Shown here: one piece after another, positions 2,371-42,100 of the stretch
Layout: each line of letters opens with the position of its first letter
How positions within the stretch are numbered: the first letter of the stretch is position 1
Source: a virus
DNA: 42,549 nt
Strand: one strand, 5' to 3'
Virus record (IMG/VR): IMGVR_UViG_3300045988_103922
Made by a program: the position numbers and the translations under genes
The notes under the pieces: generated by a model
Seen by the model: the letters and a program-made list of their open reading frames with translations, nothing else
What the model was told of the DNA's origin: nothing
Databases searched by the model: none

Positions 2371-2787
2371 ATGGGGAAATACTACGACGCGGCGCTGGTG
2401 CTGCGTGGGATCATGGACAAGGCCGGGGCCATGCTGACGGACGAGCAGGCCTTGCAGGTGACAGCCCTGTATCCCCTGTGGGACGCTACGAAGACCTACG
2501 CCGTGGGCGACCGCGTGCGGTACGCTGGCAATCTGTACCGCTGCCTGACGGCCCACACAGCACAGGCGGCATGGACACCTACTGACGCGCCCAGCCTATG
2601 GGCCAAGGTACTGACCGACCCCAGCGGGGAGATTCTGCCGTGGGTTCAGCCGGACAGCACCAACCCCTACGCCAAGGGCGACAAGGTGACGCACAACGGT
2701 AAAACGTGGGAAAGCCTTGTGGACAATAACGTCTGGGAGCCGGGCGTGACAGGAACGGAAAGCCTGTGGAAGGAAGTGTCGGCATGA
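2371..2787 (+). CDS. Carbohydrate-binding protein with two CBM5/12-like repeats
   Basis: I chose the internal ATG, which has RBS AAGGGAGG. Repeat 1 is YAVGDRVRYAGNLYRCLTAHTAQAAWTP...SLW and repeat 2 is YAKGDKVTHNGKTWESLVDNNVWEPG...SLW. Confidence 0.75.
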   Translation: MGKYYDAALVLRGIMDKAGAMLTDEQALQVTALYPLWDATKTYAVGDRVRYAGNLYRCLTAHTAQAAWTPTDAPSLWAKVLTDPSGEILPWVQPDSTNPYAKGDKVTHNGKTWESLVDNNVWEPGVTGTESLWKEVSA

Positions 2788-2873
2788 TCGGCTTTGTGGT
2801 CGGCTTTTTGGTCGGCGGGATCGTCGGCTTTGTGGTGGCCGCGCTGCTGGCGGCGGGAAGGAGCGAGCTATGA
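2784..2873 (+). CDS. Possible 29-aa single-pass membrane micro-protein
   Basis: It is not in the ORF track because it is under 60 aa. Sequence MIGFVVGFLVGGIVGFVVAALLAAGRSEL. It overlaps the upstream stop, and its stop forms ATGA with the next start. Confidence 0.3.
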   Translation: MIGFVVGFLVGGIVGFVVAALLAAGRSEL

Positions 2874-3895
2874 GGCGTTTGACAACGGCACTGACGGCGG
2901 ACGAGTTTGGCCGGGCCGCGCTGAATCTGGGCCGAGCGGATGAAAACGCCGCCGTGCGGGTGGAGATCGACCTGAGCGCCATCCTGACGCAGGAACCCAG
3001 CGCCAGTGCCCATCTGACGGTGGAAAGCCCGGTTGGGGCGAAGTACCCGGCCAGCACCGTCATGGACGGAGGGAAGCTGATCTGGGACGTATCGGACGCG
3101 GACACCGCCGCCGAGGGGACGGGCCGCGCCCAGCTGACCGTGACCGGGCCGGGCGGCGAAGTGCTAAAAAGCGCCGTGGCCGTGACGCGGGTCGGCCATT
3201 CCATCCGGGGTGAGGGCGAAGCCCCGGAACCCCTGAAAAGCTGGGTGGATGACGCAGTGGCTAAGCTGGCGGCGGTGGAGAGCGCCATTGCCGACGCTCA
3301 AAAGGTGGCGGACAATATCCGCCAACAGCTGGAATCCGGGGCGTTTGTCGGCCCCAAGGGGGACAAGGGCGACAACGGCAAAGATGCGGAAGTGACCGCT
3401 GAAAGCATCAGAACCGCGCTGGGGTATACGCCGATAGCGCCGCACGAATTTGAGCTGATCGAGGAGATCACACTCAGCGAGGATGTGCGAAACATCAGCC
3501 GAAGCACATTCCCGGATGGAACGCCCTATAACCTGCGGTCGGTCATCGTCGTTATCGACACAGCCAGTCTGGAAAACAGACAGACCGCGTGGGGTTGGCT
3601 GCGGCTGAACGCGCAGAAGCCGTTCGATCAATGGCTCTATGTTTCGCAGGGGACGATCTCGGACAGCTCAACGGGCTATGCGGTATTCGCTTTCCGCGAG
3701 CGGGTAGACAAATCCTTTGAATCCATCTATTACGGGACAGTAAACAGCACAAACACCGCTTTTACGGAGCACGTGCGATTGATTCCCAGCAATACTGTGC
3801 GCTTCGGCTCGCGGGTCACGGATATCTACCTTTACACGACGGATGGGGTCATTCCGGCGGGCGCGAAAATATCCATTTATGGGGTGAGGGCATGA
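2870..3895 (+). CDS. Tail fibre/receptor-binding protein with a short collagen-like stretch
   Basis: A coiled-coil segment is followed by GPKGDKGDNGKD and then a C-terminal globular domain. It lies in the fibre block. Confidence 0.65.
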   Translation: MRRLTTALTADEFGRAALNLGRADENAAVRVEIDLSAILTQEPSASAHLTVESPVGAKYPASTVMDGGKLIWDVSDADTAAEGTGRAQLTVTGPGGEVLKSAVAVTRVGHSIRGEGEAPEPLKSWVDDAVAKLAAVESAIADAQKVADNIRQQLESGAFVGPKGDKGDNGKDAEVTAESIRTALGYTPIAPHEFELIEEITLSEDVRNISRSTFPDGTPYNLRSVIVVIDTASLENRQTAWGWLRLNAQKPFDQWLYVSQGTISDSSTGYAVFAFRERVDKSFESIYYGTVNSTNTAFTEHVRLIPSNTVRFGSRVTDIYLYTTDGVIPAGAKISIYGVRA

Positions 3896-4083
3896 AGAAA
3901 AACATCTTGGTCAGGGTCGGCGACCGGCTGGAAGCCCAGAACGTGGAAATGACGGTGGAGGAGATCGCCACGCTGGAAAAGGAGTGTGCGGTAATGCCCA
4001 CGCCGCCGAAGAACGACCGGGAAACCGTCGCCGACATGACGGCGGCGCTGGCGCTGCTGGGAATCAGCGGAGAGGAGGAATGA
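3892..4083 (+). CDS. Small acidic protein following the second fibre gene
   Basis: ATGA overlap at both ends. The C-terminal motif DMTAALALLGI parallels ORF 1851..2117. Confidence 0.55.
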   Translation: MKKNILVRVGDRLEAQNVEMTVEEIATLEKECAVMPTPPKNDRETVADMTAALALLGISGEEE

Positions 4084-4799
4084 CCATGACCGGCGAGAGA
4101 GCCGCTGCCTTTGCCCGGTCGAAGATCGGACAGGGGTATATCTACGGGGCCAAGGGCCAGACGTGTTCAGCGGCCTTCCGGCGCCAACAGGCCCAGCAGT
4201 ACTCCGATCAGGCGCAGAACATCCTCGTCACCGGGGCCAAGTGGGACGGGCGGCCCGTGTGGGACTGCGCCCAGCTGACGCGATACGCCGCCAAGGCGGC
4301 GGGGGTGGAGCTGCCCAGCGGGGCCACCAGCCAGTGGCGGAAAGGCCCGTGGAAGCGGAAAGGAACCATCGACACCCTGCCGGAGGGCGAGGTGGTCTAC
4401 CTCTACCGGCAGAAAGGCTCCATCATGCAGCATACCGGCCTCGCGCTGGGGGACGGCACCTGCGTCCATGCCCGGGGCACGGCCTACGGCGTGGTGCATC
4501 AGCCGGTCAGGGACTACCCGTGGACGCACTGGGCCAGCCCGTGGGAGGCGGAGAGCGCTCCCCTGCCGGTGGAACCAATCGAACCCATGACGGAGGCCAC
4601 CGTGTACGCGGAAAACGGTCTGCCGGTGAAGTTGAGGAACAAGCCCAGTCAGGGCGAGAACCTGTACTGGAATGTGGCGGACGGGGAAACCGTGACCATT
4701 GAGGAGCCGGGGAACGAGTGGTCGCTGGTCAGGGCCCGATGCACTGACGGCGTCCGGCGGCGGGGCTGGATGATGTCGGGATTTCTGGCCATGGGATAA
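4080..4799 (+). CDS. Endolysin: NlpC/P60 (C40) peptidase with a C-terminal SH3b-like domain
   Basis: The Cys motif is WDCAQLTRYAAKAAG and the His motif is MQHTGLALGDGTCVHA. The C-terminal segment ATVYAENGLPVKLRNKPS...WSLV...GWMMSGFL is SH3-like. Confidence 0.85.
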   Translation: MTMTGERAAAFARSKIGQGYIYGAKGQTCSAAFRRQQAQQYSDQAQNILVTGAKWDGRPVWDCAQLTRYAAKAAGVELPSGATSQWRKGPWKRKGTIDTLPEGEVVYLYRQKGSIMQHTGLALGDGTCVHARGTAYGVVHQPVRDYPWTHWASPWEAESAPLPVEPIEPMTEATVYAENGLPVKLRNKPSQGENLYWNVADGETVTIEEPGNEWSLVRARCTDGVRRRGWMMSGFLAMG

Positions 4800-8630: not shown

Positions 8631-8665
8631 AAACCCGCAAACCGTTGTGGTTTGCGGGTTTCTTT
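8631..8665 (+). terminator. Rho-independent terminator after the cargo cluster
   Basis: A 13-bp stem AAACCCGCAAACC/GGTTTGCGGGTTT with a 5-nt loop is followed by CTTT. Confidence 0.7.
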
Positions 8666-8709
8666 GGTGAGCCCGGCGGGATTCGAACCCACGACCTTTT
8701 GATTCGTAG
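8665..8709 (-). other. tRNA-Arg(ACG) 3' fragment running from anticodon loop to CCA; putative attP core
   Basis: The reverse complement reads CTACGAA (anticodon loop, ACG), TCAAA, AGGTC, GTGGG-TTCGAAT-CCCGC (T arm), CGGGCTC-A-CCA. The 5' half of a tRNA is absent. It lies 59 nt from the end of the integrase gene. Confidence 0.7.
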
Positions 8710-8767
8710 GTAAATACTTGTGATTTATAAAATCGTTGAAAATAAAGGATTTTTTACCGTGAAAAAT

Positions 8768-9919
8768 TTAATTGACCCCCGTTTTGACCCCTTTACATAT
8801 TAGTTGGTCGATATAAGAGGCAGTCTGAGATTCTGCTTCAATGCGGCGAAGATCGGTAACGTGATCATAAATGCGGCGGATCATCTTATCGTCGCTGTGC
8901 CCCATCCACTGCATCAGAACTTCGATAGGCACATGAGCGTCGCAGCACATGGTGCAAAAGGAATGGCGGAAATCGTGGGTGCGAATGGTAATGCTGCGCC
9001 ATGGAAGGAGCTTACCTTCCGCCAGAAGCTGTTTATGCTCTTTGGTCTTGCCATACCAGCGTTTATGGCAGCCGTTGAGCTTGGTTTCCATGTCGGTAAT
9101 GTAGCTTTCCCAAGCACGATCAAAGGCGGAAAGGGTTGTTTGGCCGTTCTGGGCCTGAAAGGCAGAACCATGCTTGCCCTCCAAAACAGAACGAAGCGGA
9201 TTAAAAAGCGGAAGGGAGCGAACCCCGGCGGAAGTTTTGGGGGACTTGGTGCTGCCGCGAATCCCATCAGAAAAGGAAACAGCCTCCCGAACATAGATGC
9301 GACCGGAAGAGAAGTCTATATCACGGTCAATATTGAAGGCCAGAACTTCCCCTCGGCGGAGGCCCGCGTAAAGCATGAGCATGGCGGCGATGCCGAAACG
9401 ATGATCCACCATTTCATGAACGAGCTGACGTTCCCAAGGCTCCAAAGCCCGATGAGTACCGGTAGTCCCGGCGGGAGGCTTGACGGAGCGGGCGGGATCG
9501 GACGGAATGACACGATCATCTACTGCATCGGAAAAAAATGCGCGGATCAAACCCTTTGCCTTTGAAATGTAGGAATGACTGAGTTCGGAGAGACTGTTAT
9601 AATATTCGGCAATATCGGTCTTAGTGATGCTTTGCAACGGAATATCCTGGCCGACAAAGGAACAAAAACGTTCCAGTATGTTGACGTACTGATTATAGGC
9701 GGCGGGGTTGGACTGAGAGCGATAGGCCGGGAGCCAGCGGGAGACGTACTGCTGGACGGTGACGCCTGCGGCCTCGCGCCGGAGACCTGATTCCTCCTGC
9801 CGCTTATAGGCCTCGCGGGCGGCAAGGGCCTCGGACTGGGTGGAGCCGTAGAACTCAAGGCCCTTGTATTTGCAGCGGAAGCGTCCGTCCGGGCGCTGCT
9901 TGAGGGTTTGACGGGGCAC
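8768..9919 (-). CDS. int: Tyrosine recombinase (phage integrase)
   Basis: GTG start with RBS AAGGGGG. It has an N-terminal SAM-like region, the catalytic-region motifs LYAGLRRGE and HDFRHSFCT...WMGHSD...IYDHV, and it is adjacent to the tRNA-derived core. Confidence 0.92.
   Translation of the reverse strand: MPRQTLKQRPDGRFRCKYKGLEFYGSTQSEALAAREAYKRQEESGLRREAAGVTVQQYVSRWLPAYRSQSNPAAYNQYVNILERFCSFVGQDIPLQSITKTDIAEYYNSLSELSHSYISKAKGLIRAFFSDAVDDRVIPSDPARSVKPPAGTTGTHRALEPWERQLVHEMVDHRFGIAAMLMLYAGLRRGEVLAFNIDRDIDFSSGRIYVREAVSFSDGIRGSTKSPKTSAGVRSLPLFNPLRSVLEGKHGSAFQAQNGQTTLSAFDRAWESYITDMETKLNGCHKRWYGKTKEHKQLLAEGKLLPWRSITIRTHDFRHSFCTMCCDAHVPIEVLMQWMGHSDDKMIRRIYDHVTDLRRIEAESQTASYIDQLICKGVKTGVN
8773..8791 (+). 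repeat. attP arm repeat, copy 2, embedded in the last integrase codons
   Basis: It is identical to 8542..8560 and encodes the integrase C-terminus GVKTGV on the minus strand. Confidence 0.85.
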
Positions 9920-9925
9920 GGAAGA

Positions 9926-10456
9926 TTACCCCCTTTGGAAAGCATTGACCAGCAGGCTGCTATAGCGGATGAGACCCCGCCCGCCGTTGGTCACATCCCA
10001 CAAAAACCAGCTGAAAAACAGGGTGAGAAGGAAAAGCGCAGCAAGAGCGACGGCCCGCCAGACACGAAGTTCCTGATGCTGGGAGTGAAGGTGATCTTCC
10101 CGGACGGCGTTTTCGGATCTGTGGGCGTCTGACATTTCGGCAAGAGTCCGCTGGTGCAGGGCGTCTATTTCGCGGACGTACTCGGCACTGTAGCCAGAGT
10201 CGCTGGGAGACTCCGGGGAGCGGAGACCGGCCAGCTCGTCCAGCGAGATACCAAGAGCGGAGCAGACCAGAAAGACCCGGTCGAAGGAAGGCGTGGTCGA
10301 GCCGGAAAGAAAATTGTCGAGCGTACCCTTTGGGATCTGGGTATGATCGGCAAGATTCTGGACGGTCAGTCCGCAGAAGGAAAGACGGGCCTTGATGAGC
10401 GTCCGGAGAGCGTCCATATCAACGGGAATTGCCTGATTCGGAAACGAATGCTCCAT
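9926..10456 (-). CDS. XRE-family HTH regulator with a C-terminal transmembrane anchor
   Basis: The HTH is LTVQNLADHTQIPKGTLDNFLSG and the transmembrane segment is WRAVALAALFLLTLFFSWFLW. It is co-oriented with int, 7 nt upstream of it. Confidence 0.75.
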   Translation of the reverse strand: MEHSFPNQAIPVDMDALRTLIKARLSFCGLTVQNLADHTQIPKGTLDNFLSGSTTPSFDRVFLVCSALGISLDELAGLRSPESPSDSGYSAEYVREIDALHQRTLAEMSDAHRSENAVREDHLHSQHQELRVWRAVALAALFLLTLFFSWFLWDVTNGGRGLIRYSSLLVNAFQRG

Positions 10457-10875: not shown

Positions 10876-11452
10876 AGAAACGTTTGCTTGCCTGACGGTA
10901 GCGGATGATGTAGAGAACGATCTGAACGATGAAACATGGAATGATGAGCAAGTGCGCATAGGTAAGATACGGTTTTTGAAAAAGGATAACAAGATCCCAG
11001 ACGTAAGCAATGGTGCAGAGGAAACCGGCAATGTCTTTCCACGTCATAACATAGATGAAGATATAAATAGCGATCACCCATGAAGGGACAGGAAGAATGA
11101 TTGTGGGAACAATATAAAGCGAAAAAGAAAAAAGCCACATGAGAACGAGCTTGACGCCGCCCATGAATCCAGCAAAGGAAACCCTTTTTTCTTTTTTGAA
11201 CGCATTTTCGACGTTTGATTTTTCCGGGGGAGCGCTGACGGCCTCGGGCTGCTTTTGGGCGTTTTCATATTTTTCCCGGCAGACCTGCAGAAGACCGTGG
11301 TATTCTTCTGATTTGGTTTTGTAGTATTCCAGCTCCGCCTTGCAGGACTGAAGTTCTTCTTTGGTTTTATAGTATTCCAGCTCTTCCTTGCAGGACTGAA
11401 GCTCCTGTTTGCATTGTTCAAGTTCAGAAGAAGGGTCGTTTGGGGAGCACAT
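10874..11452 (-). CDS. Prophage membrane protein: N-terminal Cys-containing coiled coil plus a C-terminal multi-pass membrane domain. Candidate superinfection-exclusion or abortive-infection factor.
   Basis: ATG with RBS AAAGGAG and 8-nt spacing. It has the tandem ELQSCKEELEYYKTKE / ELQSCKAELEYYKTKS followed by about 4 hydrophobic helices. It lies in a markedly AT-richer segment inside the immunity region. Confidence 0.65.
   Translation of the reverse strand: MCSPNDPSSELEQCKQELQSCKEELEYYKTKEELQSCKAELEYYKTKSEEYHGLLQVCREKYENAQKQPEAVSAPPEKSNVENAFKKEKRVSFAGFMGGVKLVLMWLFSFSLYIVPTIILPVPSWVIAIYIFIYVMTWKDIAGFLCTIAYVWDLVILFQKPYLTYAHLLIIPCFIVQIVLYIIRYRQASKRF
11312..11407. repeat. 48-bp tandem duplication (2 copies) inside CDS 10874..11452
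   Basis: TTTGGTTTTGTAGTATTCCAGCTCCGCCTTGCAGGACTGAAGTTCTTC is followed by a copy with 6 mismatches. Confidence 0.9.
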
Positions 11453-11539: not shown

Positions 11540-11896
11540 TCAGAGGCCCGCCTTTTTGAGGGTGTCGAGGATATCGCGGAGCTGCTGCCACTGATCGTCA
11601 CTGAGGGCGCAGAACGCGGCCATGGTCTGGCGGGCGAAGTCGTTTTCGCCGCGCATGACGCGGGAGACCAGTTCATCCCAGCCGGGGGCTTCGGGGTGCA
11701 TTTCCCCGGTGCCGAACTCCAGCCATTCCCGACAGATGTTGAATTCGCGGCAGATATTGCGTTTGAGCGCTTCGGTAGGCGTACGAGCGCCCTTTAACCA
11801 CATGTTGATGGTAGGCGGCTGTATTCCGATGCGGCGGGCGAATTCGGCCTGGGTGATATGGTTTTCATCCAGTATTTTTCGGATACGGTCTTTCAA
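11540..11896 (-). CDS. CI-like XRE-family repressor
   Basis: TTG start with a strong RBS AAAGGAGGT at 6-nt spacing. The HTH is ITQAEFARRIGIQPPTINMWLKG followed by WLEFGTGE. It is divergent from a consensus promoter. Confidence 0.8.
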   Translation of the reverse strand: MKDRIRKILDENHITQAEFARRIGIQPPTINMWLKGARTPTEALKRNICREFNICREWLEFGTGEMHPEAPGWDELVSRVMRGENDFARQTMAAFCALSDDQWQQLRDILDTLKKAGL

Positions 11897-11948: not shown

Positions 11949-11978
11949 TATTTCTGTTGACAAAATTATTTACGTAAA
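11939..11978. promoter_or_regulatory. Two operator-like perfect palindromes, TTTACGTAAA, inside 17-bp direct repeats
   Basis: AAAATTATTTACGTAAA occurs at 11932-11948 and 11962-11978. The palindromes are at 11939-11948 and 11969-11978, 30 bp centre to centre. Confidence 0.6.
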
Positions 11979-11985
11979 GTATAAT
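11957..11985 (+). promoter_or_regulatory. Rightward early promoter (PR-like) with a perfect sigma-70 consensus
   Basis: TTGACA at 11957-11962, a 17-nt spacer, TATAAT at 11980-11985. Operator palindrome 2 lies in the spacer. Confidence 0.7.
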
Positions 11986-12016: not shown

Positions 12017-12226
12017 ATGACGGAGGCGCAGGAGCTGGCGATCCGATTTATGGAGACAAACTTCAGAAGCGCGGGACAAGGGAAAAGAGCGACAGGAGCG
12101 CCCTTTGCGGATCCGCCGAGAGCGGATAGCGGGAAATGTAGAACTCCAACGCCATGCGGCAGTTCAGGATTTCGCCGGAGGATAGTTGGTAACCGGGAAG
12201 GGCGAGACGAGACAGGAAAGCGTTGA
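12017..12226 (+). CDS. Doubtful 69-aa ORF downstream of the PR-like promoter, antisense to 12063..12314
   Basis: Good RBS GGAGGT at 7-nt spacing and a natural-looking first 15 codons (MTEAQELAIRFMETN). The remainder is R/G/P-rich and fully antisense to a better ORF. Confidence 0.25.
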   Translation: MTEAQELAIRFMETNFRSAGQGKRATGAPFADPPRADSGKCRTPTPCGSSGFRRRIVGNREGRDETGKR

Positions 12227-12314
12227 CGTCGGACACATCGGATGTGGGGAGCGCGTCATAGAACGCCTGAAAGGCATCCGCAAGGGAATCGAACTGCTGG
12301 GGAGTTAGGACCAT
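12063..12314 (-). CDS. 83-aa protein of unknown function, transcribed toward the CI-like gene
   Basis: Internal ATG with RBS AAAGGAGGT and its own extended -10 promoter. The amino-acid composition looks balanced (MVLTPQQFDSLADAFQAFYDALP...). Confidence 0.6.
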   Translation of the reverse strand: MVLTPQQFDSLADAFQAFYDALPTSDVSDVNAFLSRLALPGYQLSSGEILNCRMALEFYISRYPLSADPQRALLSLFSLVPRF

Positions 12315-12344
12315 GGAAAGACCTCCTTTGAAGATGATGAGGAC

Positions 12345-12373
12345 ATTATAGCACCGAGAAAAGGAAGTGAGAA
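12345..12373 (-). promoter_or_regulatory. Leftward extended -10 promoter facing the PR-like promoter
   Basis: On the minus strand: TTCTCA (-35), 17 nt, TGCTATAAT. The GTGCTATAAT string is the same as in the CI promoter. Confidence 0.55.
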
Positions 12374-12374
12374 T

Positions 12375-12512
12375 ATGACAGCCAAAGAGAAGGAAGCCAT
12401 TCTGGAGGAGATCGCGCGGCTGAAGGAGCCGGAGAAGCAGTTTATTCTGGGCTGGTGCGCCCACGCGGCGGCGACGGCGAAGGCGGAGGACGGGAAGAAG
12501 GCCAGCGCGTGA
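12375..12512 (+). CDS. Possible 45-aa protein
   Basis: It is not in the ORF track. Sequence MTAKEKEAILEEIARLKEPEKQFILGWCAHAAATAKAEDGKKASA with RBS AAGGAAG. Its stop lies in the loop of hairpin GCCAGCG/CGCTGGC. Confidence 0.35.
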   Translation: MTAKEKEAILEEIARLKEPEKQFILGWCAHAAATAKAEDGKKASA

Positions 12513-12542
12513 CGCTGGCCGAAGCCCGCTGCGGGCCGATAT

Positions 12543-12637
12543 GGGGCAGGGAGTTCATCAGGGAAAGAACGGCACTCACATGCGCGCGGCTGTGCTAAAG
12601 AGTGCAGGTGCGGGTTCGACGCCCGCCCGCCCCACCA
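12543..12637 (+). ncRNA. tRNA-like element 1 (95 nt, CCA-ending, non-canonical middle arm)
   Basis: Acceptor GGGGCAG/CCGCCCC (6 of 7 pairs). D-like arm GTTC-ATCAGGGAAA-GAAC. An irregular 34-nt arm spans 12572-12605. Canonical T arm GCGGG-TTCGACG-CCCGC, then A-CCA. I could not find an anticodon arm with a 7-nt loop. Confidence 0.4.
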
Positions 12638-12747
12638 GCGGCGCGTCTGGTCAACGCGCCGGTTGTCAGTCCCATTGAATTGGGAACCTCCAATGTGTGT
12701 GGCAAAGCGGAAAGACGCTTGGCGGCCCGGACAGACGGGCATTTTAT

Positions 12748-12809
12748 GGGGCTGATCCAGCGACCATGGCGCTGGATGATTGCTGGCTCGTACCCAGCCA
12801 GCCCCACCA
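12748..12809 (+). ncRNA. tRNA-like element 2 (62 nt, no D arm, CCA-ending)
   Basis: Perfect 7-bp acceptor GGGGCTG/CAGCCCC. An 8-bp hairpin ATCCAGCG/CGCTGGAT carries the 7-nt loop ACCATGG (CAT at the anticodon position). Then GATT, the arm GCTGG-CTCGTAC-CCAGC, and A-CCA. Confidence 0.35.
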
Positions 12810-13018
12810 ACCCCGGGCTGGACACACCCGGGTAACGTCTCAGGCATGGGACGTGTCATTACCTCCTAGGGGCATGACCCCGACCCTACCCCTTCACCAT
12901 CTTTCGGGGCGGGCGGCCCTCTGGCGCGCGGAGATCTGGTACGTCACCGGCGCTTTAAGAGGGCCTACACCAGAGAAAAAGCCCAAAGCGGGCCAAAAAT
13001 AGAAGCGAGGCGGACGGA

Positions 13019-13240
13019 ATGTTCAACAAAGAGCGGTTCAAGGCGGCGGTATTCCTGAAGGGCGAGACCATGGAGGACGCGGCGGAGGTGCTGGGAATGG
13101 CGTATTCGACGCTCTACCGCCGGATCAGGCTGAACGACTTTAAGTCAAGAGAGATCGAAACCTTTTGCGAGCACTACGGCGTGACGCGGGATGAGATCTT
13201 TTTTGATGGGAAGGAGCTGCCGAAATGGAGCGGCTGCTGA
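13019..13240 (+). CDS. Cro-like or other early HTH regulator
   Basis: The HTH is MEDAAEVLGMAYSTLYRRIRLND. It is the first well-formed gene of the rightward early operon. Confidence 0.7.
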   Translation: MFNKERFKAAVFLKGETMEDAAEVLGMAYSTLYRRIRLNDFKSREIETFCEHYGVTRDEIFFDGKELPKWSGC

Positions 13241-13533
13241 CGGCGGCGGAGGCTGCGGAGCTGCTGGGGCTGACGGAGCGGGCCGTGCAGGACCTGATGA
13301 AGAGCGGGGAGATCGAATGCCTGAGCGTGAGCAAGCGCCCGGGCGGCCCCCGGCCCAAGCTGCGCACCACGGAGAGCCGGTTGGAGCGCTGGGTGCAGCG
13401 GCGGGCGGAGGAACAGAAGCTGCGGCAATTCCCCCAGGACAAGCCCGTGCGGAGGAAGCGCCGGGCGGACGAGGTGCCGCCGGGCATGGAACGGACGGCG
13501 GACGGGCAGCTGCGAATTGCGAGGAGGCACTGA
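13225..13533 (+). CDS. Excisionase-family (MerR-like HTH_17) DNA-binding protein
   Basis: LLTAAEAAELLGLTERAVQDLMKSGEI with RBS GGAAGGAG and a basic C-terminal tail. Confidence 0.65.
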   Translation: MERLLTAAEAAELLGLTERAVQDLMKSGEIECLSVSKRPGGPRPKLRTTESRLERWVQRRAEEQKLRQFPQDKPVRRKRRADEVPPGMERTADGQLRIARRH

Positions 13534-21110: not shown

Positions 21111-21469
21111 TAGTTCCTCGAGCCTCCCCGGACAATGATCTCATCCCGGCAATAATCATCGTCCGTGGAACATACGGCGATGCGGATCTCCAGTCCGTCG
21201 TTCTCGGGCTTCCTAGCCTCCTGTCTGGCCATGCGGAGCGCTTCGCGCTTCACGGTGCTGCCGTTATCAGAGGCGTAGTTGCTGCCGACCTGTACCGCCT
21301 GGCAATAATCATCGTCCGTGGAACACACGGCGATACGGACTTCCAGCCCGTCGTTCTCGGGCTTTTTGGCTTCCTGCCGGGCCATGCGGAGCGCTTCGCG
21401 CTTCACGGTGCTGCCGTTATCAGAGGCGTAGTTGCTGCCGACCTGTACCGCGTACCAATTCTTGCTCAT
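21110..21469 (-). CDS. Hypothetical protein built from two tandem 51-aa repeats
   Basis: AVQVGSNYASDNGSTVKREALRMARQEA(K/R)KPENDGLE(V/I)RIAVCSTDDDYC occurs twice. RBS GGGGAGAT. Confidence 0.7.
   Translation of the reverse strand: MSKNWYAVQVGSNYASDNGSTVKREALRMARQEAKKPENDGLEVRIAVCSTDDDYCQAVQVGSNYASDNGSTVKREALRMARQEARKPENDGLEIRIAVCSTDDDYCRDEIIVRGGSRN
21148..21453. repeat. 153-bp tandem duplication (2 copies) inside CDS 21110..21469
   Basis: There are 12 mismatches over 153 bp. The last 71 bp of each copy are identical. Confidence 0.9.
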
Positions 21470-26202: not shown

Positions 26203-26362
26203 GGACGTGCAAGGGCACCCGCAACGGCGAAGCCCGCGACGCGAAGCGGGGCGGGCCGATAAAGAAGCGGGGAGAAAAGAAAAACGGTTTTTGATAGCAT
26301 AAGTCCAGACACACCGGAAAGACGGTAGACGACGCGCCGGAGAGACGGCAGAGGAGAAGCAT

Positions 26363-33162: not shown

Positions 33163-36100
33163 ATGGCGAAGAAAAAGAAGACCACCAGTCAGAAGAACTA
33201 CAGCGCCCAGGACTACCTGAACATGGCCCGGGACGCGGAGAAGAAGACCCAGCGGGAAACGGAACTGCGGGAGAGCCGGACGGCAACGGACTACCTGAAC
33301 ATGGCCCGGCAGGCCCAGGGGGAGCAGCCCATCCCGAAGCGGAAGAAAGAAGACGATCAGGAAAAGGGAAACGCCGGGGAAAAGCTGAACCGGGCGGCGC
33401 TGCTCATGAGCCGGATACCGGGAGCGGGCGACCTGAAGCGGCAGGAGTTGAACCGCACGGCCAGAGCCCTGCAGCAGGCGGCAGCCCGGAGCTACAAAAG
33501 CGACGGGAAGAATTGGAGCCTTGCGGGCACGGGCAGCGTATTTGACCCCATCGGCACAACGGCGAAGCGGCGGGAATTTGAGAGCGGACTGGACACGGAG
33601 CTTTTGCAGAGCAATCTGAACCGGCTGACGGAGCAGGAGAAGCGGGAGCAGAGCGCCCAGAAGGAGCAGAACGCCAAGAAGAACGCCAGCAGCCTGCACC
33701 AGCGGACGCAGCCCAAGGAATGGATGATGCCCGTGAAGCGGGAGTTCGGCAGCCGGGTGGGCAGCGGCGTGGAGACCTTCGGCGGAGGCGGCGGGAAGAT
33801 CGACGCGCAGAAAGAGCCTGAGACGGCCCGGGAAGCCATGTTGGGGGAAAGTCTGACCGACAGGAAGGCCCGGGTGCAGAACGCCCTGTACGAGGCCGCC
33901 AGCGCGGCGGACAGGGCGCAGCGCTCCGCCTTTGACCGTAAGGGGGCACAGGAGCGGCTTGCGGAGATCGCCGGGCTGAAGCAGACGGACGAGCAGCAGC
34001 GCGAGGCGGACTACCTGGACATGGCCGAGGGAGACGATACGGCATGGCTCAGCCCGGAGGAGATGCAGACGCTGAAGGAAAAGAACGGCACCTACGGCGA
34101 GAAGTACGCGCAGGAGGAGCGGGCGCTGAACCGGGGCCTGAACCGCAGCGAGCGGTACGTGTACGAAAACGCCATGAACACAGACAGCAGCTTTGACCGG
34201 CTGGCGGAGGAAGGCCGCGCCATGGACACGCGGATGAAGAACGCGGAGGACGTGCTGGCCTATCCCCACGACGCGAAGGCGGCGGCAGAGGCGGAGAAGC
34301 TGGTGAAGTACACCACGGACGCGGAAAGAAAGACGTACTACTACACCCTGCGAACCAAGGGGCAGGAGGCGGCGGACGCCTATCTGGACGCGCTGGACGC
34401 AGACCTGAACCGGCGGAGGGGCGAGGCCCAGCTGGAAGCCACCCGGCAGACGGTGAACAGCGGAGCGCTGGGAGCCATCGGAGCCAACGCATACAGCGTG
34501 CTGAGCAGCGTGGGCGAAACGCCCGCGTATATCTCCAACCTGATCCAGTTCCTGCGGGGGCAGGACATCGACCCGTACAGCCCGGAGAACATGGTGAGCC
34601 GGGTGAACGAGGAGATCCGCAGCCAGACCACGCAGAATATTGAAAACGGCGCGCCGGGATTCCTCGGCAAGGCGCTGGGCTTTGGCTACGGCGTGGGCAT
34701 GGACTTGGCCCGGAGCCGGTACAACATGATGCTGGGCCTGGGCATGGGCGGGAACAGCAAGATCGGCAAATGGACCAGCTCCGCCCTGATGGGCACCAGC
34801 GCGGCCCAGAGCGCCCTGACGGACGCACTGGACAGGGGCGCCACGGACGAACAGGCCACGGCGACCAGCATCTTCAGCGGTATCTGGGAGACGCTGTTTG
34901 AAGAGATGAGTTTGGAGCGGCTGCTGGATCTGAAAAGCCCGAAAACCGTGCGGCAGTTTTTGACAAACACGCTGCTGCAGAGCGCCACGGAGGGCAGCGA
35001 GGAGCTGTTTACCGAAATGGCGAACACGCTGACGGACGAGCTGATCATGAAGGACCTGAGCAACTACCGGCTGAACAAGAAAGCCTACGAGGCCAGCGGC
35101 CTGACGGAGGAAGAAGCCCGCAGGAACGCCATGGCGGACGTGGCCAAGAATTGGGGCATGGCGGCGCTGGGCGGCTTTGCCTCCGGCGCTGTGGGCGCGG
35201 GCGTGCATCAGGGGATCGCTTACGGGCAGAACCGCAGGAACGAACGATTCCAGAATGCGATCAGTGCCTATGAAAAAGGCCGCCAGCAGCAGACGACCCC
35301 TCAGACGGTGGAGGAAGCGGCCAGCGCGGCGGCACAGAATGACAGATTAAATAATTCTGAACAAAATATTACAAAAACGCAACAAATGAACGAAGAGACG
35401 AACGGCGCGGCCCGGCAGACGGCGGCGCGGGACGGCTCTGTTCCGGCTGCCTACGAAGGCGGAGGAACAAGCGAAAACGTGGAGATCGACCAGCAAAGCC
35501 CGGTGAGCCGGGTGGAGAAGGGAACGGTCTACCTGCGCACGGCGGACGGCAGCGACGTGCGGGCCAGCGACGTGACCTTCGGCGACGAGCGGGACAACCT
35601 GCTGGCGGCGGAAGGCGTGGGCCGCATGAGTCCGGCGGGGATCACCGGGATGCTGAACCACTATGACGGCACGAAGGCCACGGCGAAGGAATACGCCAGC
35701 GCCTATCTGTCGGTGTACAACCGCGCCCGGGCGGGCATGACGGTGCAGCAGGCGGTATACGACAGTGCGCAGACCCGCAGCGCCCTGACGGAGGAAGCGG
35801 CCATGGCGGCCTACGCGGCGGGCGAGAAGATGAACATGGGGCGCATCGTGCCCATGACCCGGGCGGAGAAGCAGCGGCAGCAGGCGCAGCTGGATCTGGT
35901 GAGCGCCATCAACGAGAAATTTTCCAAGAGCGGCGTGAAGATCGAGATGGTAGACCGCATCGAGGGATACGGCGGGCAGGAGGCCAACGGGCGCTGGGAC
36001 AGCGAGACCAACACCATCTACGTGAGCAAAAACGCGGACGACCATGCATATGCATACATTGCCATGCATGAACTGACCCATGCCATGAAAAGCCGGAATG

Positions 36101-39100
36101 CCAGCGAATTTGAGGAATTCGGCGACTGGGTGGTGTACTACCTGAACGAAAGCGGCCAGGACGCGGACGCGCTGGTGCGCGGGGAGATGATCGCCCAGGC
36201 GCAGGCCATGGGGCTGATGGAGCGGCAGAAGGCGAACCTGACCACCGAGGAACAGCTGAAGCTGCTGGACGGCCTGAGCGAGGAACAGTACAAACAGCTG
36301 AACGAGCTGGCACAGGAGGAGCTGATCTGCAACACGGTGCCCAGCATACTGCAGAACGAGAACGTGCTGATGGACCTGTACCACACGAAGCCCACGCTGT
36401 TTGAGCGGATCAAGAACTTCCTGAAGGAGTTCATCGACGCGGTGCGCGGCACGGGCAGGGAGCTTGGGAAGACCCGGGCCTTCCAGCAGATGGAGGCCAT
36501 GGGAAAGAACCAGGCGGCGCTGGAAGACATCTACAACCGCATGGTGCAGATGGCGGAGAACGGGGAACAGCAGCGGCAGGCGGAAGAGACGAAGTTCAGC
36601 CAGAAGGAAACGGATCACTACGACTACAGCACGCCGTTTATCCAGCAGGTGGACGATCTGCTGGAAGGAAAGATACCGAAAAACGACGCGCTGGTGATCG
36701 GCGGAACGCCGGACGTGCTGAAAAACATCGGCTTCAGCAATCTGCCGATGACCATCAACACGGAGCATATCAAAAACATGAACCGCGATACGGAGCATGT
36801 ATTGAGCAGGGCGTTTATGGAGCAGCTGCCGGAGCTGATCAAGGATCCGCTGGCGGTGATCGAATCGAAGACGAGCCCGGAAAGCAGCACGGTGATGCTG
36901 CTGAACGCCGTGGTGAACGGAAAGCCGTATATTGCGCCGGTATATATAACAACGACAAGTATGCAAAATGGATTAAAAATAGACAGCAACAACATTGCCA
37001 CGGTATTCCGAAAAGGAAACGCCATCACCAAGCTGCTGACGGACGCGCTAGAAAAAGAAAACGCCGGTAAGACCGGCGTGTACTACTGGAAAAAGAAAGA
37101 GGCTCGTGACCTGTTCGAGAGCGCCGGGGTCCAATTCCCCGGAGGTTCTATGCAGGACGGCCTCATCCATAGTATATTAAAAAATGATTCCCCTGTCAAC
37201 AGGAAATTTGTGGAGCAGACTGAAACGAAGCAGTTTAAGCGCTGGTTTGGGGACAGCAAGGTGGTGGACAGGGACGGCGAGCCGCTGGTGGTGTACCATG
37301 CCACGGATGCGGAATTTACTGTGTTTGACCGTGACAAATTGGGGAAAAGAACAAAGGAACGGGATATAGAAGATTTTAACAGGAACATGGAAGACAGCGT
37401 TGGACTTTTGAGAAGCGCAGAGCTGGGCTTCTGGTTTAGCGAAAAAAATCTGGCAGAAGATGAATACGGAGGACGGGATGTACTGAAATTAGAAGATGGT
37501 AAAAGAATAGGGATGCCTGTGTATCTGAGCATTGAAAACCCGAATTACGTTGATACCTATGACCTGATGGAAACGCTCGATAACATGACCGTGGAAGAAT
37601 ATCTGCAGGAGATGGAAGACTATGGATATGACGGCCTGATCGTAACAGATCAGGAGTTTGACAATGCGACGAGCTACGTTGTCTTTAAGCCGAACCAGAT
37701 CAAGAGCGCAACGGATAATGTGGGAACGTTCGACTATTTCAATCCGGACATCCGCTACAGCCTGAAGGAAACGGACGAGAACGTGCGAAAGCAGGTAGAC
37801 CTGACCCGGGAGCTGATGGAGGAGACCGGCGGCTACCGGCTGACGCAGGCGGACGCGGAGCGGGTGATGAAGCGGGTGGCGAAGGAATTTGGCAGCCAGA
37901 CGGACGCAAGCGAACTGGCGGCGGACTTCGCCCGGGTGATGGAATACGCAAGGCAGCAGAACGCGGACATGGATCAGGTGGACAACGAGCTTTTGAGCAT
38001 TGCGGACAAGATGATCGCCAACAGCCAGCAGCTGGACGAGGAGCACGAGGAGGAAGTGAAGCCCATCCGGGAGAAACTGCGGAAGACGGCCATCAGCCTG
38101 ACGGACAGCCAGAAGGCGGAGGCGGCCAGCATGACCGGCAGCCTGGGCGCGTACCGAAAGGCTCTGTTCGGGCAGGTGAGGCTGAGCCAGCAAAGCGGCG
38201 TGAGCCTGGACAGCGTGTGGAGCGAGCTGAGCAACCTTTCCCCCACCCTGTTCCCGGCGGACACGGCGGAGGGCGATATGCCACGGCTGCTGATGGAGGC
38301 GGCGGACGCGGTGAAGCCAATCATCGAAAATCAGTACGGGCTGGACAGCGAGGAAGCGGCCCAGTACGCCGTGATGCAAATGGTGGACCAGTACATGAAG
38401 CTGCCGGGCGTGCAGACGGCGGCGAAAAATCAGAAGCGGATGGGACTGACCGCCAGCCAGTACCGGGAGCTGATGGACGCATTCCTTCAGAAGAGCGAGA
38501 AGCAGTTCCAGAGCGCTTGGGTAAAAACGTGGATGCAGAAGGAAAAGGCAATCGGCGCTCAAAAGGAGCAGGAGGCCCGGGCGAAGTATCAGGAATGGAA
38601 AAGAAAACAAATACAGCGAAATCAGGAATGGAGAAAAGAAGAACTGCAAAGCGAAAAAAACTGGAAACAGGAAAAGCGGCAAGAAATGTCGCTATGGAGG
38701 CAGGAACAGAGGAGCGCCATGCAGGAAAGCGCCAAAGAATGGAAACAGGAAAAGCGGCAAGAAATGTCGCTATGGAGGCAGGAGCAGCGGAACGCCATGC
38801 AGGAGAAATACCGGCAGTGGCGGCAGACGGACACGGAGACCCGGAAGAACCGGGAAGCGGTGAACACCTACCGCGACCGGCTGGAACGCACCACCCGGAC
38901 GCTGCTGAACTGGATGGAAAAGCCCAACAAGACCCAGCATGTGCCCATGGAACTGCAGAGCGACGTGCAGAAGGTGCTGGCGGGGCTGGACTTCAGCGGG
39001 AAGACCACGCTGGCGGCCAAGGATCTGGGCAGCCGGATCGAGGCCATGACAAACCGGATCGCAAACTTGCAGGAGAAGACCGACGAGAACGGAGCCAGCA

Positions 39101-42100
39101 GCCAGACCTTCTACCTGGAACGCGACCAGCAGATGCTGGACGAGCTGCACCATCTGGCGGCGGTGATCGGCGCGAACAACGGGAACGTGTACGAGCTGAG
39201 CGCGGCGGAGCTGCGAGACCTGAACAAGTGGATGAACGCGGTGAAGCACGTGATCACCGACGTAAACAAGAACCACGCCAAATACTATCAGGGGAAGTAC
39301 TACCGGGGCGAGAGCCAGTACGGCACCATCGAGGAAGTGGCGGACAGCACCAAGGCGGAGCTGCACCGGAAGAAAGCCTACGCGGACAAGAAGGGCGTGA
39401 CCCGGGCATGGAACGAGATGCTGGGCAAGGGCATGGTGGACTGCTTCAGCTTCTTTGACAAAATGGGAAGCGCGGGCGGAGAAGTGTTTGGCAACCTGCG
39501 GAAGGGATTTGACAAGCACATCCGCAATGTGAGCGCGGCCAAGAGCTACACCGAAAGCCTGCTGAAGGGCGTGGATCAGAAGACACTGCGGCAGTGGACG
39601 GACGAAAAGAAGCGCACGGAGTACAAGACCGACCGGGGCGAGACCATCCGCCTGAACACGGCGGAGGTGATGGAGCTGTACGTGCTGAATAAACGCGAGC
39701 AGGCCCAGAGCCACCTGTACGGGCAGGGCATCCGCACCAACGAGAAGGTGGAGCCGGTGATGCTGACCCGAGGGGACGTGCAGAACATCACGGGGACGCT
39801 GACGAAGGAGCAGAAGCAGATCGCCGACAGGATGCAAAAGTTCCTGGCCAAGGACTGCGCCGCCTGGGGCAACGAGGCCAGCCGGGTACTGGTGGGCTAT
39901 GACAAATTCGGCGAGGAACACTACTGGCCCATCCGCACCGACCCCAACAGCAACCGCACCCTGAACGCGGACGGCAGCGCGGCCAACCTGAGCTACATCA
40001 AAAACCAGAGCTTCACAAAGGAACTGACCGAAAAAGCCCAGAACGCCATCATGGTGGAAAGCATTTTCGGGACGTACACGCGGCACATCAGCCAGATGAG
40101 CGCGTACAACGCCTACGCGGTAGCCATGACGGACCTGCAGCGGTGGTTTAACACACCGGGGGTGAAGACGGAGATCGAGCGGGCCTACGGCAGCAACGGC
40201 GTGCGGTACATTACCGACCTGATGAAGCAGATCAACGGCACGGCAGACAACGGAAAGACCTTCGGCGGAGTGCCGAAACTCGTCAGCCATGCGAAAGCCG
40301 CTGCTGTAGGCGCGAACTTGAGCGTGGCCATCCAGCAGCCCACGGCCTATGTGCGGGCGGCGGACATGATCAGCCCGAAGTATCTGCGCGATGGGCTGTT
40401 CCAGAAAAGCGACCCGGAACTGGTGAAGAAGTGGTGCCCCATTGCGGAATGGAAAAGCTGGGGATTCTACGAAACGGACGTGGGCCGGGGGCTGAACGAT
40501 CTGATCGTAGACCAGAGCAACGCGCTGGAGAGGGCCACGGAGAAGAGCATGATCCTGGCGGAGAAGGGCGACAAATGGACCTGGGGAAAGCTGTGGAACG
40601 CGGTGGCGGCGGAGACCCGCGACCTGTACGCGGGCGAACTGGAACCGGGAACGGACGCCTTCTATGAAAAGGTGGGCCAGCGGCTGAGCGAGATCATCGA
40701 CAAGACGCAGGTGGTGGACAGCGTGTTCCACCGAAGCCCCATCATGCGCGACCGGGGATACAGCTCCATTTTTACCAGCTTCATGTCGGAATCCATCAAG
40801 ACCTACAACATGGTGGAGCGGGCCATTGCGAACTTTGCGGAGAACCGGAAGGATCCGGCGGCCAAGCGGCGGCTGATGCGCACCATGGCGGTGTACGTGG
40901 TCAACGCGCTGGCAGGAGCCATGGCAAAGAGCATCCCTGCGGCGGCCAGAGACGACGATAAGGAGAAGAACTACTGGGAGAAATATCTGGAAGCGCTGGT
41001 TGAAAACGGCAAGGAAAACCTTCTGTTTACCAACAATATTCCGATGATCAAGGACTGGCTGGCGGTCCTGAACGGCGAAGAGACCAAACGATTGGAATAT
41101 CAGAGCATTGAACGGCTTGCGTCTCTTTTGGCTGAAATGGATAAAGTACGTACAGGAAAAGGAAGCAAGTGGAGCGGATTCAAATGGTTCTACCGAATTG
41201 CTCAAAGCGCCAGCGACATCACCGGCGTACCGGCGTATGCGGCCATCCGGGACGCGAAGGCCATTGTGCAGACGGTGGGCAGCGCCATTGGGCAGGACTG
41301 GTACATCCCCATGGAGAACGAGACGGCCAGCTTCAGTTACGCGGCGGAAAACCTGTACGAGGCCATCCGCAAGGGCGACAGCACAGCGGAAACGCGGCTG
41401 AGGGAAAAGCTGGGCGCAACGAAAAGCCCGGCTCAGATCGACGCGGCGGTGGCAAACGTGCTGATGCAGCAGGACAGCCGGGTGGCGGAGGCGGCGGCGC
41501 TGAAGCTGCAGGGCAAGGCCACGGAGCTGAACCAGAAGAAGCAGGAGATGGTGGCGGACGGGTTTACGGCGGAAATGGTGGACAAGGCCGTGAACCGCTA
41601 CATCACCGAAGGCCAGGCCGAGAAGGAAAAAGACCTGACCAAGGAGCTGAAAGCCAACCTGTGGAGCAAGGATGAGGCCGTGACGGCCCTGCGGACGGCG
41701 GCGGGCCTGATGGAAGGAAGCGCCACGGCGGACGACGTGAAGGCCATCGTGAGCGAGCTGGTGGCGGACAGCACGGCCAAGGATCCGGCCAAAACGGTGA
41801 AGAGCGGCATCGTGAGCGAGGTGAAGAAGGACTATGTGAGCCTGATGGAGGAAGGCAAGACCACGGAGGCCAAGGGGCTGCTGCGTGTGCTGCAGGACAC
41901 GCTGGGCGTGACGGACGCGGACGCCAAGGGCTGGGTGACGGAAGGCCACCAGGAGAGCCTGCGGACGGCGGCGGAGGCTATGGACGTGCGGGCGCTGAAG
42001 GCGGCCATGACGAAGCTCAAGAAGGACGGCAAGACCGACCAGAGCATGAAGAGCAGCATTGAGGGCGTACTGAAGAAGCAGTACCTGGCTGCGAAGGAGG

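Follow-up and report, generated by a model that had tools for sequence, protein, structure and literature searches.

What can a stretch of roughly half a kilobase that encodes no protein, and in which two segments close on themselves like tRNAs, be doing beside the lysis-lysogeny switch of a temperate phage? The question is raised by positions 12513–13018 of the IMG/VR virus record IMGVR_UViG_3300045988_103922, which was analysed over its full length of 42,549 nucleotides (hereafter, the window). An initial annotation, made by a model from the letters alone, had placed a non-coding, hairpin-dense island here, between a 45-aa open reading frame (ORF) ending at 12512 and a helix-turn-helix (HTH) gene starting at 13019, with the switch nearby, and these flanks were borne out. 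Our favored reading, to which we give a probability of about 0.45, is that the tRNA-like modules of the island serve as handles for RNase P and 3′-end processing and as stable scaffolds. The evidence comprises the structures themselves, their conservation and covariation, the interchangeability of the modules, and a positional link between tRNAs and a double hairpin termed M. The parts of the island are as follows.

12524–12536, + strand: hairpin GCCCG-CUG-CGGGC, 6 nt 5′ of E1, with a proposed role in protecting the 3′ end of the 45-aa ORF mRNA
12543–12637, + strand: E1, tRNA-shaped, 95 nt, comprising an acceptor, a D arm and a canonical T arm, with ACCA encoded
12640–12660, + strand: spacer hairpin GGCGCG-UCUGGUCAA-CGCGCC, directly after the CCA of E1
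12670–12691, + strand: hairpin UCCCA-UUGAAU-UGGGA followed by a single-stranded ACCUCC (12686–12691), read from the sequence
12701–12740, + strand: motif M, a 40-nt tandem hairpin between E1 and E2, ending 7 nt before E2
12748–12809, + strand: E2, a 62-nt D-armless tRNA-like module with 7-bp acceptor, 8-bp arm, T-like arm and encoded ACCA
12810–12975, + strand: C3, a conserved structured tail, drawn from the consensus fold of nine homologues
12980–12994, − strand: terminator-like hairpin at the right edge of the island

The judgement that the island is non-coding has held up. Its closest homologue differs by insertions or deletions (indels) of 5, 2, 1, 2, 1 and 10 nt, all of them frame-breaking, and by 21 substitutions that fall 9/6/6 over the three phases, with no 3-nt periodicity. 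Long stop-free stretches do occur on the minus strand, but the 184-aa antisense ORF there has no Pfam match. Phages often carry 3′ fragments of tRNA or tmRNA (transfer-messenger RNA) genes as their attachment site (attP), and the island might be read in that way. However, it lies 2.6 kb from the integrase gene and its elements hold both acceptor strands, and the real attP is elsewhere, at ~8660–8710 (− strand), where the 3′ part of a tRNA gene (...GGUCGUGGGUUCGAAUCCCGCCGGGCUCACCA) directly abuts the downstream end of the integrase gene. It follows from the nature of this attP that the phage's integration site in the host is a tRNA gene. Both the attP and the protein-coding interpretations are already refuted by this evidence. 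The initial catalogue of parts had overlooked this attP, as well as M, while E1, E2 and the other stems it listed are all present.

Both CCA-ending, tRNA-shaped folds lie on the + strand where they had been placed, together with the stems GGCGCG/CGCGCC (12640–12660) and CCCGGG/CCCGGG (12813–12833) and the ACCUCCU tract at 12861–12867. The whole 506-nt island folds more stably than its shuffled counterparts (z = −3.55; 0/100 as stable). When both strands of the 42.5-kb window were scanned loosely for a T arm with closing acceptor and NCCA, three matches resulted, two of which are in the island and the third of which (23176–23082) is weak and a product of chance. E1 and E2 share a 29-nt direct repeat made up of their T-arm and 3′ acceptor strands, and direct comparison showed that the differences within this repeat pair with matching changes in the 5′ strands. 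In agreement with the earlier reading, which recognized no known RNA family here, no Rfam family matches the island at its gathering threshold, and a search of 12300–13100 and of a related island (L014) for GOLLD, ROOL or other structured RNAs of Rfam gave no match at the gathering score or at E <= 10. ARAGORN at default settings likewise calls no gene in the window. Nine of the 21 substitutions within the lineage lie in the 25-nt linker just 5′ of E1, and the modules are better conserved than the linkers. Compensatory changes among the homologues were found in E1 (double changes) and C3, and wobble-only changes in E2, and these support the helices on the + strand.

E1 is clearly a recognizable tRNA body. 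Its D-like arm (GUUC/GAAC, 4 bp, loop AUCAGGGAAA) and its canonical T arm (GCGGG-UUCGACG-CCCGC) agree with the initial annotation, as does the long arm that stands in place of the anticodon arm, while the acceptor GGGGCAG/CCGCCCC is present but pairs at six of seven positions, 6:67 being an A opposite a C. The stability of E1 relative to shuffles is modest (z = −1.8). Copies are 94, 95 or 96 nt long, and 12 distinct sequences keep all proposed pairs except 6:67, with far lower values in shuffled and slid controls. The anticodon loop has been replaced by an extended, covarying helix with an invariant apex, AUGCGCGCGGCUGUGCUAA, in all 12 variants; four of the six pairs in the long-arm stem show double compensatory changes (GCACUC/GAGUGC vs UCGCCG/CGGCGA, plus C-G to U-A). 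The L014 copy scores 35.8 bits on the Rfam tRNA model, above the gathering score of 29, and is aligned with 25 nt where a 7-nt anticodon loop belongs; among the E1 copies, 22–25 nt separate the anticodon-stem strands. ARAGORN calls two further copies (L020 and L023) “tRNA-???” and, at a lowered threshold, the window copy “tRNA-?(SeC|Val)”; its other calls with introns or lowered thresholds are implausible.

E2 departs further from a tRNA. The perfect 7-bp acceptor, the 8-bp hairpin with loop ACCAUGG and the lack of a D arm are as first described, and the fold is considerably more stable than shuffles (z = −3.7; 0/200 as stable). Its T-like arm, GCUGG-CUCGUAC-CCAGC, has a non-canonical loop (CUCGUAC), and the D-armless (mitochondrial) mode of ARAGORN does not recognize E2. 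The loop of the 8-bp arm varies (ACCAUGG, GCCAUGG, UCCGCGG) with C at position 33, exchanging the palindromes CCAUGG and CCGCGG. Among four E2a variants, the stems differ only by changes from Watson-Crick to G-U pairs (A67G, C69U and one C-to-U in the T stem); these would create mismatches on the opposite strand, while every pair is kept on the + strand.

Neither element has the 7-nt loop with U33 and anticodon on a 5-bp stem that decoding requires. E1 retains acceptor (6/7), D arm and T arm and fits the type of tRNA that carries an insert in its anticodon loop, while E2 retains acceptor and T stem only and does not fit that type. What the modules share is the top half, namely acceptor and T arm, with U at −1 and G at +1. 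The comparison covered eight module types, six from the island family (E1, E1b, E2a, E2b, E2c and TLS18) and two from unrelated Clostridia phages (L128 and L092). An acceptor with 5–7 of 7 pairs and a 5-bp T stem occur in all of them, usually followed by ACCA, and the rest differs completely; the T stem is paired 5/5 in seven types and has one mismatched pair in L092. Paralogue E1b combines the T-like arm and inner hairpin of E2 with a different, fully paired acceptor (GGGAAGG/CCUUCCC), and E2c is a 46-nt acceptor/T minihelix only. Thus the modules keep the acceptor/T-arm top half, with the anticodon half replaced in E1, shrunk in E2 and deleted in sister modules. It is proposed that E1 and E2 derive from tRNAs and no longer decode. 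An encoded CCA is the local style for tRNA genes, as it also ends the tRNA fragment of attP and the tRNA-Met of a related contig (L018).

As a cassette, the island recurs among related phages of the human gut, in 30 contigs; scanning for exact patterns taken from it brought up 14 contigs of IMG/VR and 15 from human-gut metagenomes, with C3 as the anchor in searches for island copies. Mapping of the module library gave the order [E1 or E1b], spacer hairpins, M, a post-M slot, C3a and C3b, where the slot holds E2a, E2b, E2c, a second E1, or E2b/c followed by a 244-nt insert and E2a; two loci have only E1 and C3. The insert was mapped in four contigs (L016 2694–2937, L023 1698–1941, L144 and L145), and L018 has a related sequence in the same place that the module search did not map. 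E2b and E2c before the insert end in CCCCACAAG, without CCA, and within the insert are a T-arm-like hairpin and at least one further acceptor/T minihelix (CUUGAUC...GCGGGUUCGAUCCCCGC GGAUAAG), which also lacks CCA. Modules are 85–100% identical between the window lineage and a second lineage (L002), in which the cassette sits between genes unrelated to the 45-aa ORF and the HTH gene. Because the flanks are unrelated while the modules are conserved, and because repeats have been inserted between modules, the cassette therefore behaves as an autonomous, shuffled unit. The same architecture occurs, made of unrelated sequences, in phages of rumen and other Clostridia (L128, L092). The downstream HTH protein, used as a query, matched the same three island-bearing contigs only, and a BLAST search of GenBank phages with the island gave a sole match of 39 nt, to M (12703–12741, 97%), in a prophage record from a proteobacterial host. 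A search of 5,426 Escherichia coli genomes for the island or M found nothing.

These data bear on whether the modules are simply decaying remnants, that is, pseudogenized phage tRNA genes without function that persist only through recent kinship. The low diversity among the 30 islands (85–100%), the imperfect acceptor of E1, the failure of default ARAGORN to find any module, whether in the window or at eight related loci, and the lack of an Rfam match in the window at the gathering score would all be expected of such remnants. Yet the double compensatory changes of E1 and the wobble-only changes of E2, the conservation of modules above that of linkers, the same cassette amid unrelated genes, and the recurrence of its architecture in unrelated sequences (L128 and L092) make this account quite unlikely.

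GOLLD and ROOL, large phage RNAs that associate with tRNAs, invite comparison with the cassette. They are likewise structured, non-coding RNAs of 500–900 nt from prophages of Firmicutes, lie beside or contain tRNAs, and have variable and conserved halves; the island differs in consisting of small, autonomous modules strung together instead of a single large fold. A second comparison is with the 3′ tRNA-like structures of plant viruses, which stand at the 3′ ends of RNA genomes and are aminoacylated for replication or translation. These too are viral, non-decoding, CCA-ending tRNA mimics recognized by host tRNA enzymes, whereas the elements described here are internal, DNA-encoded modules of a double-stranded DNA phage.

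Why should a phage keep precisely these parts of a tRNA? It is the top half, with U−1, G+1 and a 3′-CCA, that RNase P, 3′-trimming enzymes and the CCA enzyme recognize. The 5′ junction of the tRNA-like elements reads AU|G, and a hairpin lies 4–7 nt 5′ of each such end (12524–12536 before E1, and the second hairpin of M before E2). At the former position, homologues carry other hairpins, such as CCGGCUC-UUCG-GAGCCGG (L010) and UCCCC-UUUGAGC-GGGGA (L002). Processing handles offer the simplest account of the island, because only the enzyme-recognition half of the tRNA has been kept, because one module can stand in for another and, in other phages, real tRNAs take their place, because a hairpin always stands 4–7 nt before each AU|G junction, and because the M-bearing spacer is bracketed by tRNA-type elements. 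The initial annotation had listed a broad set of functions (decoys, substrates for CCA addition or aminoacylation, primers, stability elements); the comparative evidence favors processing and stability, and decoys and primers gained no specific support. The window proteins scanned included no reverse transcriptase and no tRNA-related enzyme.

On the processing-handle reading, the early rightward transcript would include the island as a non-coding RNA cassette that is mobile and modular. Cleavage by RNase P is predicted at U12542/G12543 and U12747/G12748, and 3′-end trimming would halt at the CCA at 12637 and 12809. Four kinds of product are predicted: an mRNA for the 45-aa ORF with a protective hairpin at its end; two small tRNA-like RNAs; a spacer RNA of ~110 nt with an exposed ACCUCC tract and M at its end; and a structured tail joined to the mRNA of the downstream HTH gene. 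The released spacer RNA would thus have M as its conserved 3′ structure, and in some contexts M may act as a weak terminator too.

The ACCUCC tract, by pairing with Shine-Dalgarno sequences, would be the spacer RNA's likely working surface. It is anti-Shine-Dalgarno-like and lies 10 nt 5′ of M (12686–12691), and a CCUCC or CU-rich tract stands in the same place before M in many unrelated contexts. Duplex folding of both ACCUCC tracts against 17 translation-initiation regions of the phage discriminated no target. The spacer hairpin that precedes the tract is kept in L002-type islands with a G-U-compatible change (GGUGCG...CGUGCC). In the tail, C3 contains the CCCGGG hairpin and the second tract (ACCUCCU), which is 5′ of a hairpin GGGG-CAUGA-CCCC, along with the pairing CCCUACCCC...GGGGCGGG and a long stem, GGCCCUCU.../...AGAGGGCC. 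In L018, this stem is changed from GGCCCUCU/AGAGGGCC to GGCCCCCU/AGGGGGCC in a compensatory manner.

The processing scheme has well-known relatives. In MALAT1/mascRNA and in the TMER RNAs of the herpesvirus MHV68, an embedded tRNA-like fold recruits RNase P or RNase Z, and the cut makes the end of a neighboring RNA. Both systems resemble the island in that the neighbor's end is protected by an adjacent structure and that the non-decoding piece receives or carries CCA. They differ in being eukaryotic or herpesviral, in contrast to the bacterial host and the genome-encoded CCA found here; moreover, MALAT1 is protected by a triple helix, where the island would use a double hairpin and its processing is so far a prediction. 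There is precedent for tRNA mimics in viruses, for phage tRNAs, oversized ones included, and for processing guided by tRNAs in eukaryotes. We found no earlier description, and no entry in Rfam, either of top-half tRNA modules shuffled within a compact cassette next to a phage switch or of M with its spread across phyla and its presence in tmRNA. To our knowledge, tRNA look-alikes as processing punctuation have so far been documented only in eukaryotic cells and their viruses. If the processing-handle reading is true, then in the temperate phages of Clostridia that are abundant in the gut, tRNA look-alikes punctuate a transcript instead of serving as adaptors, which would let the early transcript be processed and small RNAs be made beside the lysis-lysogeny switch.

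A different use for CCA-ending minihelices would be as decoys that soak up defense toxins or enzymes acting on tRNA, such as CCA-pyrophosphorylating toxSAS, MenT-type nucleotidyltransferases or tRNA nucleases, thereby shielding the tRNA pool early in infection. Toxins that read the acceptor stem have reportedly been published, FaRel2 among them, and phage tRNAs are known counter-defenses; in addition, several acceptor-stem types are carried in one slot and the cassette is in the early region next to the switch. However, nothing links the modules to any defense system, they lack the anticodon loops attacked by most known tRNA nucleases, and the tight coupling to M and to the upstream hairpins would be left unexplained. 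For these reasons, we regard decoys as an unlikely function. Literature full-text searches for phage tRNA-like RNAs or decoys, and for the sequence of M, found nothing relevant.

Motif M, the most conserved module of the island, extends the argument beyond gut phages. In the window, its first hairpin (HP1) is GGC-AAAGCG[GAAAGA]CGCUU-GGC and its second (HP2) is GCCCG[GACAGA]CGGGC. With a relaxed pattern, the motif was found in exact or near-exact form in 103 IMG/VR stretches, representing 13 unrelated flank families, and in 25 GTDB species. These species span six phyla and include Oscillospiraceae and other Clostridia, Neisseria/Eikenella, Bacteroidota, Treponema, Planctomycetota and Actinobacteria. 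Its general anatomy is G-R-C-(A)-N4-G[GAAAGA]C-N4'-(U)G-R-C-N-G-CCCG[GAMAGA]CGGG-C. The upper stem of HP1 occurs as AAGCG/CGCUU, GCUG/CAGC, GAUG/CAUC, ACGGG/CCCGU, GGCGG/CCGCU and GAUCG/CGAUU, and the outer pair of HP2 covaries too; overall, 95.7% of stem cells are paired vs 80% in shuffles (0/500 shuffles reach 95.7%). The window copy scores 64.7 bits on the resulting covariance model, and M has no Rfam match even at E <= 10. The model also finds single-hairpin units (UGRC-N-stem-GAAAGA-stem) directly 5′ of tRNAs, and a second, diverged copy in the window:

26303–26353, + strand: M-like tandem hairpin with loops GAAAGA and GAGAGA (covariance model, 22 bits, E = 2e-4)

This copy, in the structural-gene region, overlaps the ribosome-binding region of an ORF starting at 26363.

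M is strongly enriched at 5–30 nt 5′ of tRNAs or tRNA-like modules. M is always on the strand of neighboring tRNAs, and the 5′ end of a tRNA or tRNA-like element lies within 30 nt 3′ of M in 12 of 35 independent contexts, vs 2.8% for random positions in the same loci; the count used a detector of canonical T loops, which misses two further cases, the window E2 and the L014 E2b. In other phages, the slot after M holds, among others, genuine tRNAs (Lys, Thr, Ile and Leu). In about 11 contexts, the 3′ end of a tRNA or tRNA-like element lies 45–82 nt 5′ of M, with a hairpin and a CCUCC or CU-rich tract between them.

Some of the tRNAs at M loci of Dysosmobacter and of large phages are themselves unusual: they are 116–124 nt long and score ~50 bits, and while acceptor, D and T arms are all perfect, the anticodon loop holds a ~50-nt insert that forms a hairpin. 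Three occur in a locus of Dysosmobacter segnis (L121: 930–1053, 1321–1436 and 1576–1696), with the same array in L053, L120 and L124. The insert is flanked by AUGCG...CGCUAAC (AUGCG...CGCUAACAGC in the D. segnis array), much like the AUGCGC...GUGCUAA of E1, and its loop is CCCCCUCCCCC in one tRNA and GAGGA in another. These tRNAs resemble E1, so tRNA bodies with foreign hairpins are a recurrent design at M loci. Oversized tRNAs with conserved “enigmatic introns” in the anticodon loop, and no known splicing mechanism, have been described in Lak megaphages (bioRxiv 10.1101/356790). Like E1 and the 116–124-nt tRNAs, these are tRNA-shaped genes of gut phages that are too long by extra sequence in the anticodon loop. 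They differ in that the insert of E1 is ~18 nt, is a covarying extension of the anticodon stem and leaves no plausible 7-nt loop upon removal, that E2 has no D arm, and that the setting is a compact cassette in a 42-kb temperate phage rather than the tRNA bank of a megaphage. If the processing-handle reading is true, a concrete function would thereby be found for those oversized or “intron-containing” tRNAs of phages that are skipped, or called enigmatic, by annotation pipelines.

In two metagenome-assembled genomes of Acidimicrobiia, the tmRNA gene also contains M-type hairpins, in tandem sets of two or three with GAC between them and with loops GAAAGA or GAGAGA. They lie between pseudoknots 2 and 4, at the normal site of pseudoknot 3 (L106, 2893–2923 within a tmRNA at 2663–3043; L129, 4037–4067 within a tmRNA at 3811–4191). 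It is worth asking whether the island derives from a degenerate or split phage tmRNA that still takes part in, or interferes with, trans-translation. Apart from the hairpins in these real tmRNA genes, the Rfam tmRNA model aligns end to end to E1 (13.0 bits) and to the L014 E2b (14.9 bits), the permuted-tmRNA model spans from the T arm of E1 to the 5′ end of E2, and the 5′ end of E2b, GGGGCGCACGGUUUGGGCACGGG, resembles that of tmRNA. The tRNA-like domain of tmRNA, including mini and two-piece forms (RF00023, RF04321), likewise combines a GGGGC... 5′ end, a T arm and ...CCACCA without an anticodon. The scores in the window, however, are 13.0 and 16.6 bits vs a gathering score of 47, and touch only generic ends. 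Furthermore, there is no tag reading frame, the modules all carry a G3-C70 pair instead of G3-U70, and the island lacks the pseudoknots. Each element is self-contained and closes on itself, and E1, with a genuine D arm, is a better fit to the tRNA model. ARAGORN finds no tmRNA by default and only “tag not identified” artifacts at -ps80, and no SmpB was found among the window proteins scanned. A functional tmRNA was accordingly rejected on its missing tag and G3-U70 pair and its sub-threshold scores, and a tmRNA-derived origin is very unlikely.

The position of M in early operons suggests yet another possibility: the island as a structured 5′ leader of the HTH (cro-like) operon, in which M is an attenuator or terminator, the surrounding structure sets how much transcription or translation reaches the downstream early genes, and the tRNA-like folds are incidental. 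The cassette does occupy an early-operon position downstream of a strong promoter. HP2 with the following AUUUUAU is terminator-like in the window (five T in eight), in one phage family M is followed by U6 behind a gene with a RinA-like C-terminus (noted by eye, without a scan), and M often lies 20–40 nt upstream of ORF starts. On the other hand, about two thirds of M contexts have no U-rich tail, M is also found within tRNA arrays and a tmRNA gene, the cassette precedes unrelated genes in different phages, and the retention of CCA-bearing tRNA top halves would be unexplained. A leader function is thus improbable as an account of the whole island.

Small hairpins in early phage transcripts just downstream of the switch recall boxB of the lambda nut site and the put element of HK022. 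The HK022 put element spans ~70 nt with two long stems and a triplex, while boxB is a single pentaloop hairpin paired with boxA (PMC9378689). M, by contrast, consists of two hairpins of 5–9 bp with GANAGA hexaloops and occurs in tRNA arrays, late regions and tmRNA across six phyla; a put-like identity was rejected on size and architecture, leaving a loose analogy. Also rejected was M as a sigma-70 promoter, with the linker TTGRCN as the −35 element and HP2 as a 17-nt spacer: inspection revealed no conserved −10, the stems covary, M lies inside tmRNA, and a promoter scan of a Neisseria locus found no + strand promoter at M.

Returning to the processing-handle reading, several points weigh against it. 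Transcription across the island, the cleavage sites and the functions of the released RNAs are predicted from sequence. Position 6:67 of E1 pairs in none of the 12 variants, and the invariant apex suggests a function beyond that of a handle, with a further partner. Close kinship among the 30 islands leaves few independent events behind the covariation, and the invariance of the M loops and HP2 is partly imposed, because the search pattern fixed the loops and most of HP2. In Neisseria/Eikenella prophages, where M lies between the repressor side and the replication genes, and in several other contexts, M has no adjoining tRNA. Finally, the invariant GANAGA loops and the UGRC linker point to a specific partner or tertiary fold, which a plain block to exonucleases would not need.

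It is tentatively possible that M, together with its CU-rich ACCUCC leader, represents an undescribed pan-bacterial class of phage small RNA that is excised by host tRNA-maturation enzymes, that the flanking tRNAs of some gut phages became pure handles or scaffolds, and that M was also built into the tmRNA of some Actinobacteria. If so, the arrangement would be a prokaryotic counterpart of MALAT1-mascRNA or of herpesviral tRNA-miRNA units. All-against-all clustering of the ORFs within 4 kb of M at 105 loci showed only a cI-like repressor to be shared, by three of the 13 flank families, and no dedicated partner protein travelling with M. The breadth of M suggests a universal cellular partner, and its presence in Actinobacteria tmRNA would imply a conserved one. 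As a compact, covarying RNA element without an Rfam match, shared by phages of at least six phyla and two tmRNA genes, M is a tractable target for pull-down and structure work.

The island belongs to the complete genome of a temperate phage, 42,408 bp long and either circularly closed or terminally redundant, since bases 1–141 are identical to 42409–42549 (a 141-bp overlap). Among the window proteins scanned are a large terminase, a P22-type portal and a replication-initiation protein with a weaker second match to a rolling-circle initiator family. The island is in the rightward early region, between the 45-aa ORF and the first of two HTH genes.

8768–9919, − strand: tyrosine integrase, lysogeny module
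9926–10456, − strand: HTH protein, lysogeny module
11540–11896, − strand: cI-like HTH protein, lysogeny module
11957–11985, + strand: PR-like early promoter TTGACA-17-TATAAT, 12/12 sigma-70 consensus, rightward
12375–12512, + strand: 45-aa ORF, left neighbor of the island
13019–13240 and 13225–13533, + strand: two HTH genes, right neighbors of the island

To judge from its consensus match, the promoter at 11957–11985 is the probable source of a rightward transcript crossing the island. On the minus strand, an 83-aa gene (12063–12314) has a strong ribosome-binding site, AAAGGAGGU, and its own extended −10 promoter (12345–12373, −). Gene and PR-like promoter face each other, so that the early transcript, running rightward, would cross the gene in antisense. 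The minus-strand hairpin at 12980–12994, on the island's right edge, could end an antisense RNA over the start of the HTH gene at 13019. L014-type islands have, at the equivalent place, a minus-strand TATAAT and, ~40 nt downstream, a strong terminator (~944–1008, −); an antisense RNA of ~55 nt, lying opposite the downstream gene's 5′ leader, is predicted from this.

Other features of the genome include a single ORF of 3,017 aa (33163–42216, + strand) that makes up a fifth of its length, a tandem 153-nt repeat at 21145–21450 with copies 92% identical, and a tandem 48-nt repeat at 11306–11401 (90% identical) inside a minus-strand 195-aa gene beside the repressor. GC-rich repeats of ~50–90 nt (e.g., GGGUGCGAAGCACCGAGGCCGAGGACAGCCCCCGAAGGGGG...), which are like repetitive extragenic palindromic (REP) sequences or miniature inverted-repeat transposable elements (MITEs), are scattered between genes and, in some relatives, between the modules of the island; examples lie at 26213–26258 in the window, at 2–66, 194–261 and 357–448 in L007, and at 2105–2182 in L002.

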